A program made the translations under genes and the position numbers. 46,711 nt of DNA from an uncultured Bacilli bacterium (GTDB lineage Bacteria > Bacillota_I > Bacilli_A > RF39 > UBA660), in contig CANRPE010000005.1 of assembly GCA_947632405.1 (NCBI GenBank), positions 1-46,711 on the forward strand, read 5' to 3'. The stretch's first letter is position 1; every line of letters begins with the position of its first letter. A model generated the notes under the pieces. That model searched no databases. It was given only the letters and a program-made list of their open reading frames with translations, and was not told where the DNA came from. This document shows, piece by piece, positions 35,205 to 39,577 of the stretch.

Positions 35205-35864
35205 TTACTTGTTAGTACTATCATATTCTAATAAAACTTCATGTATTTCTTCTTCTAAAGAATTAATAAATTCATCATCCATTAAATCAACTCGACATTT
35301 TTCTGATATAATAATTGAATTTACTTTTTTAGCAGCATCTTCAACAATATCATTAATAACAACATAGTTATATTTATTTACAGTATTAATTTCTTTATAT
35401 GCAATTTGGAATCTTTTAGTAATAGCTTCTTTTGTTTCTGTATTCCTATTTTCTAATCTTTTCTTTAGTTCCTTAATACTAGGTGGTAGAATAAAGATAA
35501 ATAAAGTATTCTTTAACTGTTCTTTAATTTTCAAAGCTCCTTGAATTTCTATTACTAAAATTACATCAATACCTTGATTTAGTTTTTCTTCAATGGCATC
35601 TTTTGGAGTTCCATAATAATTATCTGAGTATTTAGCATACTCTAAAAATTCTCCACGTTTTATTTTATCTTCAAATTCTTCTTTTGTTAAAAAGTAGTAA
35701 TCTTTTCCATCTACATCTCCTGGGCGAATTTTTCTACTAGTACATGATATTGATAGCCAGGCTTTTTTATTTGTTTTTAATACTTCTTTAACTACTGTAT
35801 CCTTTCCACAACCACTTGGTCCAGATATTACAATTAATTGTCCTTTATTTTTCATTGTTTTCAT
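35205..35864 (-). CDS. gmk: Guanylate kinase
   Basis: SGPSGCGK P-loop, DGKDYYF, YYGT, FILPPS. Confidence 0.96.
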   Translation of the reverse strand: MKTMKNKGQLIVISGPSGCGKDTVVKEVLKTNKKAWLSISCTSRKIRPGDVDGKDYYFLTKEEFEDKIKRGEFLEYAKYSDNYYGTPKDAIEEKLNQGIDVILVIEIQGALKIKEQLKNTLFIFILPPSIKELKKRLENRNTETKEAITKRFQIAYKEINTVNKYNYVVINDIVEDAAKKVNSIIISEKCRVDLMDDEFINSLEEEIHEVLLEYDSTNK

Positions 35865-37020
35865 TTTTTATTTCCTCCTTATATTTTGGATGATATTGAT
35901 ATTCTTTTTCAATTAACTTTTTCTTTTTATCTTCATTTAGTGTTGATGCATATATAGCAGTTGCTAAAAATTCCATTTCAAGGCTATTGGATTTATTTTT
36001 TGAAAAATTAGAAATAAGTGGAATAGTTACTTCTTTTTTAATTCTATTTATGTATTGTTGTCCTTTTTGATTAAATCCAAGAATCCTAATATATTCAATT
36101 TTATTACATTTTTCTTTTTTTTCTTTAGTAAATCCACATAAAATATGAACCAACATTCTATTTATTCTATTATAAGTATATCTTTTTGATTTTATTTTAT
36201 TGATTAAATCTTCATAGCTTGTTGAATTTAATATTTCTTTTTTTATTTTTTTATCTATTCCTTCATCTACTGTTTGAAATTTTTCTAAATTATCTTCTAA
36301 AATAATTTTATATTTTAAAAATTTAAAATAATCTTCTTGAAAATGCAAGTCACTGAGTCTAGATAATACAAATTCTGGAACATAGTTGCTTATATCTTTC
36401 TTTTCTATTAGGGCTTTTCTAATTGCAGTAGCACTAACTATTTCTGAATCTAATTTTTCACTTTTATAATTATTAACTCTTTTAATACAATAAGGTTTAA
36501 TTTTAAAATTATTTTCTTTTATAATTTTAAGATAACTAATTCCTAATAAGTCATTTGGTAAAGTTAAAACTTCTCCATTTAAATCTTTGATTGCTAGAGC
36601 TAAAGCTGTAGGATAATTATTTCCCATTTTTATATAAATTTTAGCTAAAGAATCAAAATCTGGATTATTTAGTTGAATATCAACTATTTTTTCAAATAAA
36701 CTAATATCGTTTGTTTCACTACCAAATACGAATTTATCTACTTTTAAATTTTCAAGAATAGTAAGTGCTCCAAAACTAAAAAAATCTGCACTTTCTGTTG
36801 AAAAAACAAAAGGTAATTCTATTACCAAATCAATTCCAGCTTCTTTACATATTTCTGCTTTAGTCCATTTATCAATTAAAGAAGGTTCTCCTCTTTGGGT
36901 AAATGAAGATGATATAACAGCAATAATTTCTTCATTAGGAAACATTTCTTTTATCTTTTGTAAATGATATTTATGTCCATTATGAAAGGGATTATATTCT
37001 GCAATAATGCCAACAGCCAT
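35845..37020 (-). CDS. tmcAL: tRNA(Met) cytidine acetate ligase (YlbM)
   Basis: GIIAEYNPFHNGH, FTQRGEP, FGSE, SATAIR, KSKRYT, YIRILGF; divergent from yceD-rpmF as in Bacillus; start 37020 with AGAGGTG RBS. Confidence 0.92.
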   Translation of the reverse strand: MAVGIIAEYNPFHNGHKYHLQKIKEMFPNEEIIAVISSSFTQRGEPSLIDKWTKAEICKEAGIDLVIELPFVFSTESADFFSFGALTILENLKVDKFVFGSETNDISLFEKIVDIQLNNPDFDSLAKIYIKMGNNYPTALALAIKDLNGEVLTLPNDLLGISYLKIIKENNFKIKPYCIKRVNNYKSEKLDSEIVSATAIRKALIEKKDISNYVPEFVLSRLSDLHFQEDYFKFLKYKIILEDNLEKFQTVDEGIDKKIKKEILNSTSYEDLINKIKSKRYTYNRINRMLVHILCGFTKEKKEKCNKIEYIRILGFNQKGQQYINRIKKEVTIPLISNFSKNKSNSLEMEFLATAIYASTLNEDKKKKLIEKEYQYHPKYKEEIKNENNEK

Positions 37021-37145
37021 AAAAACACCTCTTTTGATAGGAATAATTCTAACATAAAAATAGAATAAAATAAAGAAAAATTCATCTTTTACCTTTTTTA
37101 TTAACAATATTTATAGTATAATCTAAAAGAAAGTGACGTGATAAA

Positions 37146-37601
37146 ATGTTGATAGATTTAAATTTTAATGATTTTTATGAAATTAATGAAATAGTTGATA
37201 TTCCTAGTTCATATTATAAGAATAGTAAAGTAAAGAAATTAAATGATATTAAAGTAGTTGGTAAATTATATTATGATATTAAAGATAATTTATATGCTAA
37301 ATTTGATATTTCTGGAATTATGGTAATTGAAGATGATATTTCTTTAGAAAATATAGAATATCCTTTTTCTATAAAATATGATGATATTTTAGAAGAAAAC
37401 TTGAAAAACGAACAAAATAGACTTGATTTATTTGAATTTTTGTGGGAAAATATTGTACTAGAGGTTCCCTTAAAATTTACTAAGGTTACGAATCTCAGTG
37501 AATTTCATGGGGATGGATGGAAGTTAATTAGTGAAGATGCTATAATTCCTAATAATAATCCATTTAGTGAATTATTAGAAAACTTTGATAAAAAGGAGTG
37601 A
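37146..37601 (+). CDS. yceD: YceD/YlbN (DUF177) 23S rRNA accumulation protein
   Basis: [26 protein letters not shown]; directly upstream of rpmF. Confidence 0.85.
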
Positions 37602-37606
37602 TAAAA

Positions 37607-37816
37607 ATGATGAAATTAAATATTCAAATGTTTGCAGTACCATTTCGTAAGGTTTCAAAAACAAGAAAAAGAACTAGACAAGCTCATAAAGCTATGACAG
37701 CTCCAGGAATGGTAGCATGTCCTACATGTGGAGAAATGATTAAACCTCATCGCGTATGTAAACATTGTGGTAGCTACAAAAAACAAAATGTAGTAGAAGT
37801 AAAAGAAGCAGAATAA
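37607..37816 (+). CDS. rpmF: 50S ribosomal protein L32 with a 9-aa N-terminal extension
   Basis: [19 protein letters not shown]...[10 protein letters not shown] zinc ribbon; AAGGAGTG RBS positions the start at 37607 or 37610, giving the leader (M)MKLNIQMF. Confidence 0.95.
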
Positions 37817-37842
37817 AGATAAATTTAATTTATCTTTTTTTT
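37815..37842 (+). terminator. Intrinsic terminator after rpmF
   Basis: AAAGATAAAT-tta-ATTTATCTTT plus T-run. Confidence 0.65.
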
Positions 37843-37861
37843 ATAAGAATAGGTGATTTTA

Positions 37862-39577
37862 ATGAAAAAAATATTAGAAAATAAATTAAGTTATTTAATT
37901 ATTACTATCTTAATTTATATAGCTATGTGTCATTATATAAATATTAGTTATTTTACAATAATTAGTATTGGTTTTATGATTTTAATTTATTTAGGTGTTA
38001 AAAATTATTTTTTATCAAATTTAGAAAAGAGTAATATTATTATTGCTATTTTGTTTACAATATGCTTTTCTTTTGGAAGAATATGTTTTAATAATATGCA
38101 TAATAATAGTGTCAATATATTATTAGAATTAATATCATTAAAAAACTTATTTTACAATATTGGTTTATTTTTATTTATTTATTTAATAATTTCAATTATT
38201 ATAAAAAAATTAACTACTTTAAAAGTAATTGAAAGTAAAAATATAAATAGTAAAAAAATTTTTCTTAAATCATTAATTATTATATTAATATGTTGGACTC
38301 CCTACTTTTTAAGTTCTTATCCGGGTTATGTTGCACCAGATAGTGTTTATCAAATTCAACAAGCAACTAAAATGGTACCATTAACTGATCATCATCCTGT
38401 ATTTCACACAATGTTTATTAAAGTTTTTTATAATATTGGTAGTCTTTTTTCAACTAGTCAAAACTTTAGAGTAGCTTGTATTACTATTGCTCAAATGTTA
38501 ATTATGGCATTAATCTATTCTTATTTTATTACATTTTTAAGTAAGAAAAAAATCAAAAAATCTATTTTATTGGGACTTACAATCATGTTTGGATTACTTC
38601 CAGTTTTTGCATATTATAGTTTAATGATGTGGAAAGATGTTTTATTTGGAGGCTTTTTCTTATTATTTTTAATAATATTATGCAATATGATTGAACAAAA
38701 AAATAATATAAAATATTCTAATCTAATAGCTTTTTCGGTAGTGTCTTTATTAATACTGTTTCTAAGAAATAATGCTTTATATATGTACTTTATTTTAATA
38801 CCATTCTTTATTTTTTATTTTTCAAAACAGAAACTAAAAATTTTTATGACATTTATAATTGTATTAATTTGCTTTTTTACAGTAAAATATCCTCTTTATA
38901 ATACTTTAAATATTGAACGAAGTAAATCATGGGAATATTTAGGTATTCCTATTCAGCAAATTGGAAGAATGGCATATAAAGATACTAAATTTACTAAACA
39001 AGAAAAAAGAAGAATTGAAAAATTTATGAAGGTTAAAGATTTAAAAGAGGAATATAATCCTATTTTATCTGATGATATTAAATTTAGTTTAAAAATGAAT
39101 CAAACTTATTTTGATAAAAATTCTAAAGAATTTATTATTCTATGGAAAGATTTAATAATTAAGCATTTTGATACTGCAGTTGAATCATATTTAATATCAA
39201 CATTAGGTTATTGGTATCCTGACTTAATGAATAATGCTGTAGAAAATAAAGTTACAGTAAACGAATTAGATATTCATAGTCATCCATTATTACCTAAGCC
39301 TATTTCTAATTTTTTCAATGATTTATATCATTATGATACGCCTATTCTTTGTTTACAATGGAATATTGGTTTAATTTTATGGTTTATTTTATTATTAGCT
39401 GTAATTTGTTTTAAGAAAAATAAAAAATATTTATTATGCTATTTACCAATTTGTGGTATGTGGCTTACCTTAATGGTAGCATCTCCAGTAAATGGAATGC
39501 TTAGATATGTTTTTTGGGCATATACAAGTTTACCTTTATTATTTTTTATAAATTACTTTAAATCAAGTAGTAAATAA
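37862..39577 (+). CDS. Polytopic membrane protein (DUF6020-like, possible GT-C glycosyltransferase)
   Basis: Many TMs; YPG-x3-DS, HHPVFHT, WKD, RNN motifs. Confidence 0.6.
   Translation: MKKILENKLSYLIITILIYIAMCHYINISYFTIISIGFMILIYLGVKNYFLSNLEKSNIIIAILFTICFSFGRICFNNMHNNSVNILLELISLKNLFYNIGLFLFIYLIISIIIKKLTTLKVIESKNINSKKIFLKSLIIILICWTPYFLSSYPGYVAPDSVYQIQQATKMVPLTDHHPVFHTMFIKVFYNIGSLFSTSQNFRVACITIAQMLIMALIYSYFITFLSKKKIKKSILLGLTIMFGLLPVFAYYSLMMWKDVLFGGFFLLFLIILCNMIEQKNNIKYSNLIAFSVVSLLILFLRNNALYMYFILIPFFIFYFSKQKLKIFMTFIIVLICFFTVKYPLYNTLNIERSKSWEYLGIPIQQIGRMAYKDTKFTKQEKRRIEKFMKVKDLKEEYNPILSDDIKFSLKMNQTYFDKNSKEFIILWKDLIIKHFDTAVESYLISTLGYWYPDLMNNAVENKVTVNELDIHSHPLLPKPISNFFNDLYHYDTPILCLQWNIGLILWFILLLAVICFKKNKKYLLCYLPICGMWLTLMVASPVNGMLRYVFWAYTSLPLLFFINYFKSSSK

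Follow-up and report, generated by a model that had tools for sequence, protein, structure and literature searches.

How does a bacterial ribosomal protein L32 (bL32) come to carry, in front of its usual N-terminus, a leader of the kind that the cysteine protease Prp removes from L27? The question is raised by the rpmF gene (37607-37816, + strand) in a stretch of 46,711 nucleotides (nt), contig CANRPE010000005.1 of assembly GCA_947632405.1, from an uncultured Bacilli bacterium of the GTDB family UBA660; below, the window means this whole stretch. The literature knows L27 as the single ribosomal protein among the cellular substrates of Prp, and the enzyme is being explored as a target for narrow-spectrum antibiotics. 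It cuts pre-L27 between Phe and Ala and contacts its substrate chiefly through Phe at P1, Gln at P3 and hydrophobic residues at P4 and P6 (PMC9405229, cited throughout from the part of its text available to us). An earlier note, made from the DNA letters of the window, had proposed that this lineage recruited L32 as a second Prp substrate. Our analysis points the same way: comparison of sequences makes it likely that the leader of pre-bL32 is read and cut by Prp, and L32 would then be the second ribosomal substrate of this protease.

Results

The rpmF leader and its translation start

The full rpmF frame encodes a 69-residue protein that begins MMKLNIQMF, continues AVPFRK and ends at a TAA stop (37814-37816). 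The region 37590-37640 reads aaaaAGGAGtgataaaa ATG ATG AAA TTA AAT ATT CAA ATG TTT GCA GTA CCA TTT CGT AAG, with ATG codons at 37607, 37610 and 37628 and the GCA codon for Ala at 37634. The Shine-Dalgarno motif AAGGAG (37593-37598, + strand), contained in AAGGAGTG at 37593-37600, lies 8 nt before ATG 37607, 11 nt before ATG 37610 and 29 nt before ATG 37628, and these coordinates confirm the earlier assignment of the ribosome-binding site to 37607 or 37610 and of the leader as MMKLNIQMF. The GTG codon at 37598, given mechanically as the start of rpmF in the list of open reading frames, falls within the Shine-Dalgarno motif. Codons M1 to F9 (37607-37633, + strand) form a Prp-type recognition sequence with LNIQMF at P6-P1, followed by the predicted scissile junction Phe9/Ala10 (TTT GCA, 37631-37636, + strand) and by the mature bL32 of 60 residues, AVPFRK...KEAE, with a CxxC...CxxC zinc ribbon (37634-37816, + strand, with the TAA). 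MMKLNIQMF followed by Ala fits the consensus (D/N)-(L/I)-Q-(F/L)-F plus Ala, with Met at P2 where many relatives have Leu. The earlier count of six matching residues out of nine against the S. aureus L27 leader, MLKLNLQFF, is correct against the sequence printed in PMC9405229.

The Pfam profile Ribosomal_L32p (PF01783) aligned residues 10-64 of the protein to its positions 1-55 (81.5 bits against a cut-off of 21.3, E 4.9e-23); because profile position 1 falls on residue 10, the nine leader residues lie outside the family profile. All 26 distinct solved bL32 sequences in the PDB align from residue 10 of the query (one from residue 11) onto their own residues 1-5 and none of the 26 has the leader. 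In the best-matching chains Ala10 corresponds to chain residue 2, after the initiator Met, and it does so in the bL32 chains of B. subtilis and S. aureus. The predicted junction coincides with Pfam profile position 1 and with the M/AVPF start of leaderless relatives, in agreement with the earlier view that a cut between Phe and Ala would restore the canonical L32 N-terminus. The zinc-ribbon cysteines C38, C41, C51 and C54 are invariant among 39 L32 sequences.

These alignments also bear on the possibility that the leader is translated and never removed, leaving bL32 with a permanent N-terminal extension of 8-9 residues. Val-Pro at P2'-P3' differs from the known Prp substrates and would suit such an extension, but relatives start exactly at M-AVPF, the N-termini of the 26 solved bL32 sequences all fall on this Ala or a few residues from it, and the leader has the character of a defined protease motif kept by selection, unlike a tail that varies freely. 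In 50S structures, moreover, the N-terminal tail of bL32 is threaded into rRNA. We hold a permanent extension to be very unlikely.

To place the start codon across relatives, 172 genes were pooled, giving 152 unique leader-bearing genes. As 120 of the pooled genes had been found with a DNA pattern that fixes P6, P3, P1 and P1'-P3', amino-acid frequencies at these positions are partly circular, but start-site statistics are unaffected. A Shine-Dalgarno-like motif stands 6-11 nt 5' of an in-frame start giving a leader of 8-13 residues in 151 of the 152 unique genes, and the start codon of these 151 is ATG except for a single GTG. The leader has 8 residues in 83 genes, 9 in 64 and 10-13 in 4. The P2 codon is something other than ATG in 94 of the 152, which makes a start at P2 impossible in those genes.

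A start downstream of the leader, at ATG 37628 or elsewhere, would turn the upstream codons into an untranslated spacer conserved at the level of RNA. It has in its favour that the P2 codon of this genome happens to be ATG (37628). Yet this codon has no Shine-Dalgarno motif at a suitable distance, the 94 relatives offer no start codon at P2, and initiation there would leave Met-Phe in front of Ala. The earlier note had likewise seen no ribosome-binding site for 37628 and an extra Phe, and had named a start there as something that would overturn its proposal. Variation in the leader is in addition mostly synonymous and a search for an RNA element in the leader region gave no Rfam family at E<=1 within 36900-38100. 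We rejected the internal start at 37628 and consider a downstream start of any kind extremely improbable. In 54 unique genes that came from protein searches only, the ratio of nonsynonymous to synonymous proportions (pN/pS, uncorrected, with pS about 0.5) stands at 0.28 over P6-P1, as against 0.54 over the first 25 codons of the mature part. The rpmF leader is thus translated and kept by purifying selection.

Prp, L27 and the rarity of the motif in the genome

The host assembly (1,349,431 bases in 54 contigs, 25.5% G+C, completeness estimate 96.5%) contains one match to Peptidase_Prp (PF04327; 79.8-80.8 bits, cut-off 27) and one to Ribosomal_L27. The two genes stand in the order L21-Prp-L27 (rplU-prp-rpmA) on a contig other than that of rpmF, so the gene order expected by the earlier note is present, with the single intact Prp between rplU and rpmA. 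Across 28 aligned Prps of relatives, H21, G28, D30 and C33 never vary, and conservation is at least 90% at G20 and S37; the Prp of this genome has H21, C33 and S37 intact. Residues G20, H21, G28, D30, C33 and S37 correspond to Gly21, His22, Gly29, Asp31, Cys34 and Ser38 of S. aureus Prp (PMC9405229). The L27 of the same genome begins MRFLKLDIQLF, then AHHKGQG, with position 1 of the Pfam L27 profile at residue 12, and its leader has nearly the same motif as the L32 leader MMKLNIQMF.

We then asked how often such a site occurs in this genome. The 2,698,646 six-frame codons hold three instances of the strict motif L[DNE][ILV]Q[LMF]F with A or S after it: at the N-terminus of L27, at the N-terminus of L32 and in a 34-codon open frame that is no gene. 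A looser motif in the same six-frame scan gave no further credible N-terminal carrier. For a log-odds profile of P7-P1' we used 33 unique octamers, taken from L27 leaders in 63 other genomes; the genome itself and all L32 sequences were excluded. Over about 2.7 million six-frame positions this L27-only profile gave 26.7 bits to the genome's own L27, 23.2 to the L32 leader and 17.2 to the next site, an internal KLDIQFRA that has no Phe at P1. The L32 leader is therefore the second-best L27-type Prp site of the genome, 6 bits above the third, and its likeness to the L27 leader exceeds what chance would give. By strict motif, loose pattern and profile alike, L27 and L32 are the only proteins found to carry the motif in this six-frame scan of the genome; the earlier note had suggested a scan of the proteome for other carriers.

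Beside these matches we observed an L27 match with an in-frame TGA in a 0.6-Mb genome of the same class (L057; G040 C2:558608-558877), which fits a code in which TGA is read as Trp; the window's own genes have no in-frame TGA stops like those in that L27.

Distribution of the leader

Within the genus, 15 of the 16 other genomes carry M[MLI][KRS]L[DN]IQ[ML]F followed by AVP, with synonymous changes among them, and conservation in relatives, one of the checks proposed earlier, is thereby established; the exception, G004, starts M, then AVPF. In a sample of the family L32 was matched in 196 of 201 genomes (200 genera). In 63 of the 150 matches listed the alignment starts at the first or second residue of the query, and all 42 of those retrieved carry the leader; two retrieved sequences whose match starts at residue 3 do not. 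Roughly one in three of the family genera sampled has the leader, in forms that include MKLELQLF, MFKLDLQRF, MLKLDLQAF, MLQLELQLF and MNKLELNLQLF, and the mature L32 of leader-bearing members can be as low as 46-50% identical to the protein of the window.

Wider searches gave a similar picture. A collection of 5.8 billion proteins yielded 388 matches, with the leader in 118 of the best 120 clusters and a plain M-AVP start in the other 2. A DNA pattern with degenerate positions, written to encode L-[DNEK]-[ILMV]-Q-x-F-A-V-P-x-R-[RK]-x-S-K, was run against one genome for each of 185,579 species; there were at least 120 matches, and all 120 listed are L32 genes with a leader on contigs of 22-34% G+C, 119 of them encoding complete zinc-ribbon proteins and one being cut by a contig end. 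In a sample of the class (401 genomes, 399 scored and 2 not, covering 30 families besides the genome itself) 386 genomes matched; the rows considered are the best 150, ahead of 237 weaker ones. Among the matches listed, 29 other families of the class gave no sign of the leader: all alignments starting at query residue 1 belong to the genome's own family, a single row from another family starts at residue 2, and ten candidates from five other families (alignment starts 2-7) have a plain (M)AVP or a close variant and no leader.

The leader recurs in more than 150 independent assemblies. The organisms that bear it are uncultured metagenome bins, some with contamination estimates up to 7%, and most of the named records are titled as an uncultured bacterium of the Bacilli, Tenericutes, Mollicutes or Mycoplasmatota, their source being the gut of animals and humans. 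One of the named records, Candidatus Fimihabitans intestinipullorum, is filed by NCBI under Mycoplasmatota incertae sedis and belongs to GTDB order RF39, family CAG-822 (Gilroy et al., PMC8035907, in the part available to us). Nine further records (L155, L157, L170, L175, L177, L187, L200, L214 and L219) are titled Muribaculaceae, Paratractidigestivibacter sp. or Ignavibacteriales; their rpmF genes and their 22-30% G+C are indistinguishable from those of the uncultured Bacilli and Tenericutes bins, and the labels or the binning look wrong. A variant in one member of the family (L072; G106 C5:17860-18250) reads MKLDIQLF, then GALPARRISK, with Gly for Ala at P1' and an extra residue before the usual (A)VP, so that a cut after MKLDIQLF would give an unusual mature bL32 N-terminus.

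Joint variation of the L32 and L27 leaders

Both leaders could be read in 49 genomes. Gln occupies P3 in L32 and L27 alike in all 49 pairs. P1 is Phe in both proteins in 48 and Leu in both in one (G225, with IQML then A and IQLL then A), and P4 is Ile in both in 38, Leu in both in 9 and Leu in L32 with Ile in L27 in 2, the reverse never occurring. In several genomes P6-P1 is identical in the two proteins, for instance LELQLF in G170 and G182, LNLQLF in G130 and LDLQLF in G138. Where L32 has Arg at P2, L27 has it too in all four genomes in which an L27 was found, and in all four the codon is AGA in rpmF and CGT or CGA in rpmA; the codon families differ, which speaks against the two Arg residues having been copied as DNA. 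Nucleotide identity between the rpmF and rpmA leaders is 0.766 within a genome and 0.738 between genomes. On these two grounds recent gene conversion from rpmA finds no support as the source of the likeness. That the leaders of L32 and L27 covary is suggested by the pairs but not proven.

The Prp side offers a separate observation. The active-site loop of Prp is usually G-K-D-I-V-C in this family (K29 in the genome's own enzyme; L033-L062) and reads G-[Y/H]-D-I-V-C in three genomes with P2 Arg in both the L27 and the L32 leader, and in G024, where P2 Arg was seen in L27 only (loop variants L273, L274, L275 and L055). The Gly and Asp that flank the loop residue K29 bind the P3 Gln of the substrate (PMC9405229). 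The change from Lys to Tyr or His may be the protease-side partner of the substrate change at P2, and it probably reflects one evolutionary event.

The pairs also speak to whether another protease, a general peptidase or a back-up enzyme, removes the leader, its likeness to L27 being a matter of shared DNA ancestry. In S. pneumoniae TIGR4 bL27 can also be cut by another enzyme, the protease Rrp (2026 preprint 10.64898/2026.08.10.744006, in the part accessible to us), and Prp is therefore not the sole enzyme able to trim such leaders. Against it stand the completeness of the Prp motif in L32, the rare P1, P2 and P4 states that change together with L27, the different Arg codons of rpmF and rpmA and the restriction of the motif in the genome to L27 and L32. 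We judge removal by an enzyme other than Prp to be highly improbable.

Gain and loss of the leader

The leader state was mapped on a tree of YceD plus mature L32 (63 loci, 209 columns), which was made by a quick search and lacks support at many forks. The tree requires 10 changes of leader state, at least 4 of them forced by well-supported branches, and none of 500 shuffles of the labels needs as few; several of the family's deep branches include leader-bearing members. A single origin of the leader was considered and is unsupported, given these counts. The tree and its counts do not tell one early gain followed by many in-frame deletions from several separate gains.

One case can be read in detail. 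G004 is nested in the otherwise leader-bearing genus clade (support 100), and its state is therefore a loss. Its locus (L018, C2:29550-32738) has the same Shine-Dalgarno motif at the same 8-nt spacing directly before ATG-GCT, with the 24-27 nt of the leader missing, so that by comparison with its relatives it presents a clean natural deletion at the predicted cut. G004 retains Prp and a long L27.

Such losses would be expected if the leader were a neutral passenger, that is, the 5' end of rpmA copied onto rpmF and tolerated because Prp removes it, with no role in assembly. In its favour are the recurrent losses (4 or more changes within the family, probably about 10) and the retention of Prp and long L27 in leaderless species such as G004. 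Against it, the leader has persisted through divergence on the scale of the family, where mature L32 identity falls to about 46-50%, its pN/pS is below that of the mature N-terminal part, and it has no excess nucleotide identity to rpmA of the same genome. We find a neutral passenger unlikely, though of the alternatives weighed here it is the one to be taken most seriously. It concerns the benefit of the leader and not the mechanism, and is compatible with cleavage by Prp.

Neighbourhood of rpmF

Directly 5' of rpmF lies a yceD/DUF177-like gene (37146-37601, + strand; Pfam YceD E 7.7e-4, below the curated cut-off), whose TGA stop (37599-37601) overlaps the Shine-Dalgarno region of rpmF. In nearly all of the related loci that were looked at, yceD again precedes rpmF. 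Immediately 3' of the stop codon of rpmF, a hairpin made of A and U only and followed by a U run (37815-37842, + strand; RNA fold -7.3 kcal/mol, z -2.04) is a possible weak intrinsic terminator according to the fold prediction; the consensus terminator scan skips it because that scan needs at least 3 G-C pairs. Upstream, at 35205-37107 on the - strand, the start of a guanylate kinase gene (PF00625) overlaps by 20 nt the end of a HIGH_NTase1 gene (PF05636) that is divergent from yceD-rpmF, and downstream of rpmF, at 37853-39577 (+ strand), a membrane protein of 571-574 residues belongs to family DUF6020.

Discussion

The observations above suggest the following course of events. Translation of rpmF from ATG 37607 gives a pre-bL32 with a 9-residue leader that is, at the amino-acid level, a copy of the Prp recognition sequence of pre-bL27 (P6-P1 L-[D/N]-[I/L]-Q-x-F, P1' Ala). 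The single Prp of the genome would cut between Phe9 and Ala10 and so release the AVPFRK... N-terminus, which other Bacilli obtain by removal of the initiator Met alone. One step further, and with less support, the uncut leader might keep the N-terminal tail of bL32 out of its place in the 50S subunit until Prp acts, in which case the maturation of L32 and of L27 would hang on one enzyme. In E. coli assembly intermediates bL32 adjoins uL22, H61 of domain IV can be misrouted in particles that lack the two, and binding of uL2 was confined to particles already containing uL22 and bL32 (PMC11723945, in the part of its text available to us); a delayed or gated entry of bL32 could therefore matter for the docking of domain IV. 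The repeated natural loss of the leader implies that any such gate is dispensable. Of the earlier proposal that L32 was recruited as a second Prp substrate and adds a checkpoint to 50S assembly, the sequence, the start site, the conservation, the presence of Prp and the match to L27 have held up; cleavage by Prp is an inference, and the checkpoint role is a further one.

Several points weigh against cleavage by Prp and against the covariation that goes with it. The residues after the predicted cut differ between the two proteins, with Val at P2' and Pro at P3' in L32 against His or Ser and then His or Lys in L27; P1' is Ala, and P2' is Val in L32 where the lineage's own L27 has His. Known Prp substrates have small residues at P1'-P2', and Prps can be narrow, the C. 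difficile enzyme having left an S. aureus L27 peptide uncut (PMC9405229). Position P2 is loose, as L32 has Thr, Ala or Ile against Leu or Val in L27 in at least 5 genomes, and the four genomes with P2 Arg probably form one clade. At P4 the tree needs 5 changes; counted on well-supported branches these yield 2 independent contrasts, and the best tree yields 5. Every contrast is concordant, with a sign-test p of 0.5 for the 2 well-supported ones, and the covariation is not significant after relatedness is taken into account because the independent contrasts are fewer than the 6 that the test needs. Finally, with at least 4 gains or losses in one family, and probably about 10, the leader must be dispensable over evolutionary time and is not essential. 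On balance we consider Prp the probable enzyme that removes the L32 leader.

A broader reading, towards which we lean only slightly, is that Prp acts as a two-substrate ribosome-maturation protease across a large family of uncultured small-genome gut Bacilli. In these organisms bL27 and bL32 would both be pro-proteins with the same leader, the leaders would co-evolve with Prp (Leu at P1, Arg at P2, Ile or Leu at P4 and possibly the change from Lys to Tyr or His in the loop), the release of the bL32 tail would be a protease-gated step of 50S assembly, and the whole would be an independently evolved counterpart of mitochondrial bL32m maturation.

If L32 is indeed cut by Prp, the leader-plus-Prp module can move onto another ribosomal protein, and the lineage provides a natural two-substrate system for the study of Prp specificity, with P1, P2 and P4 variants and matching variants of the protease. 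It would also set a case from bacteria beside mitochondrial bL32m, which matures by proteolysis, and give a way into the question of why ribosomal proteins are made as pro-proteins at all. The many gains and losses in one family are ready comparisons for the benefit of the leader. For annotation, gene callers should expect an L32 of 68-71 residues in this lineage.

The earlier note knew of no description of L32 as a Prp substrate, and our literature search, which covered open main texts, likewise found no report of an L32 with a Prp leader or cut by Prp. In the part of PMC9405229 available to us L32 appears once, as a tunnel protein, and a look-up of terms in the accessible part of the 2026 S. 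pneumoniae preprint (10.64898/2026.08.10.744006) gave no link between L32 and Prp.

Among known systems the closest is the long-form bL27 with Prp (MEROPS C108) of S. aureus, B. subtilis and other Firmicutes, Fusobacteria, Synergistetes and some Tenericutes and Thermotogae, where the leader consensus is MLxx(D/N)LQ(F/L)F'A(S/H)KK and the S. aureus example MLKLNLQFF'ASK (PMC9405229). The same article names a solved complex of S. aureus Prp with a peptide, 7KLD. In B. subtilis the L27 leader has LDLQFF at its end. As in long bL27, L32 has an N-terminal leader (8-15 residues in L27) ending (D/N)-(L/I)-Q-x-F before Ala, the predicted cut exposes the N-terminus of leaderless organisms, and Prp is encoded between rplU and rpmA. 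The two differ in that L32 is a zinc-ribbon protein next to uL22 whereas L27 reaches the peptidyl transferase centre, in the residues after the cut (V-P-F-R against (S/H)-(K/H)-K) and in distribution, the L32 leader being patchy within one family and the L27 leader phylum-wide. The mechanism that we propose is the same in both; what is new is the ribosomal substrate and the residues that follow the cut.

Beyond L27, some further proteins are known or suspected to be cut by Prp at the N-terminus. The scaffold gp46 and capsid gp47 of phage 80alpha carry the same N-terminal motif and are cleaved by the host Prp (PMC9405229), but they are structural proteins of a phage that exploits a host protease, and L32 is a core cellular ribosomal protein. 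The N-terminus of FlhB resembles the L27 leader of the same species and has been proposed as a Prp substrate from sequence comparison only, with varied P2' residues at the proposed sites (PMC9405229, section 3.2 and Table 3). FlhB is a membrane protein of the flagellar export gate with a looser motif in many species, while the L32 match is second only to L27 in the whole genome.

The remaining parallel lies in mitochondria, where bL32m belongs to the same protein family and the N-terminal part of its precursor is removed before assembly; in yeast the MrpL32 precursor is reportedly matured by the m-AAA protease before it is assembled. There the enzyme is a membrane AAA+ metalloprotease acting on a long import presequence, and no motif is shared with the 9-residue leader described here, which has that of Prp. 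By this comparison the likeness between L32 of these gut Bacilli and bL32m is one of function, an analogy and not a homology of leaders.

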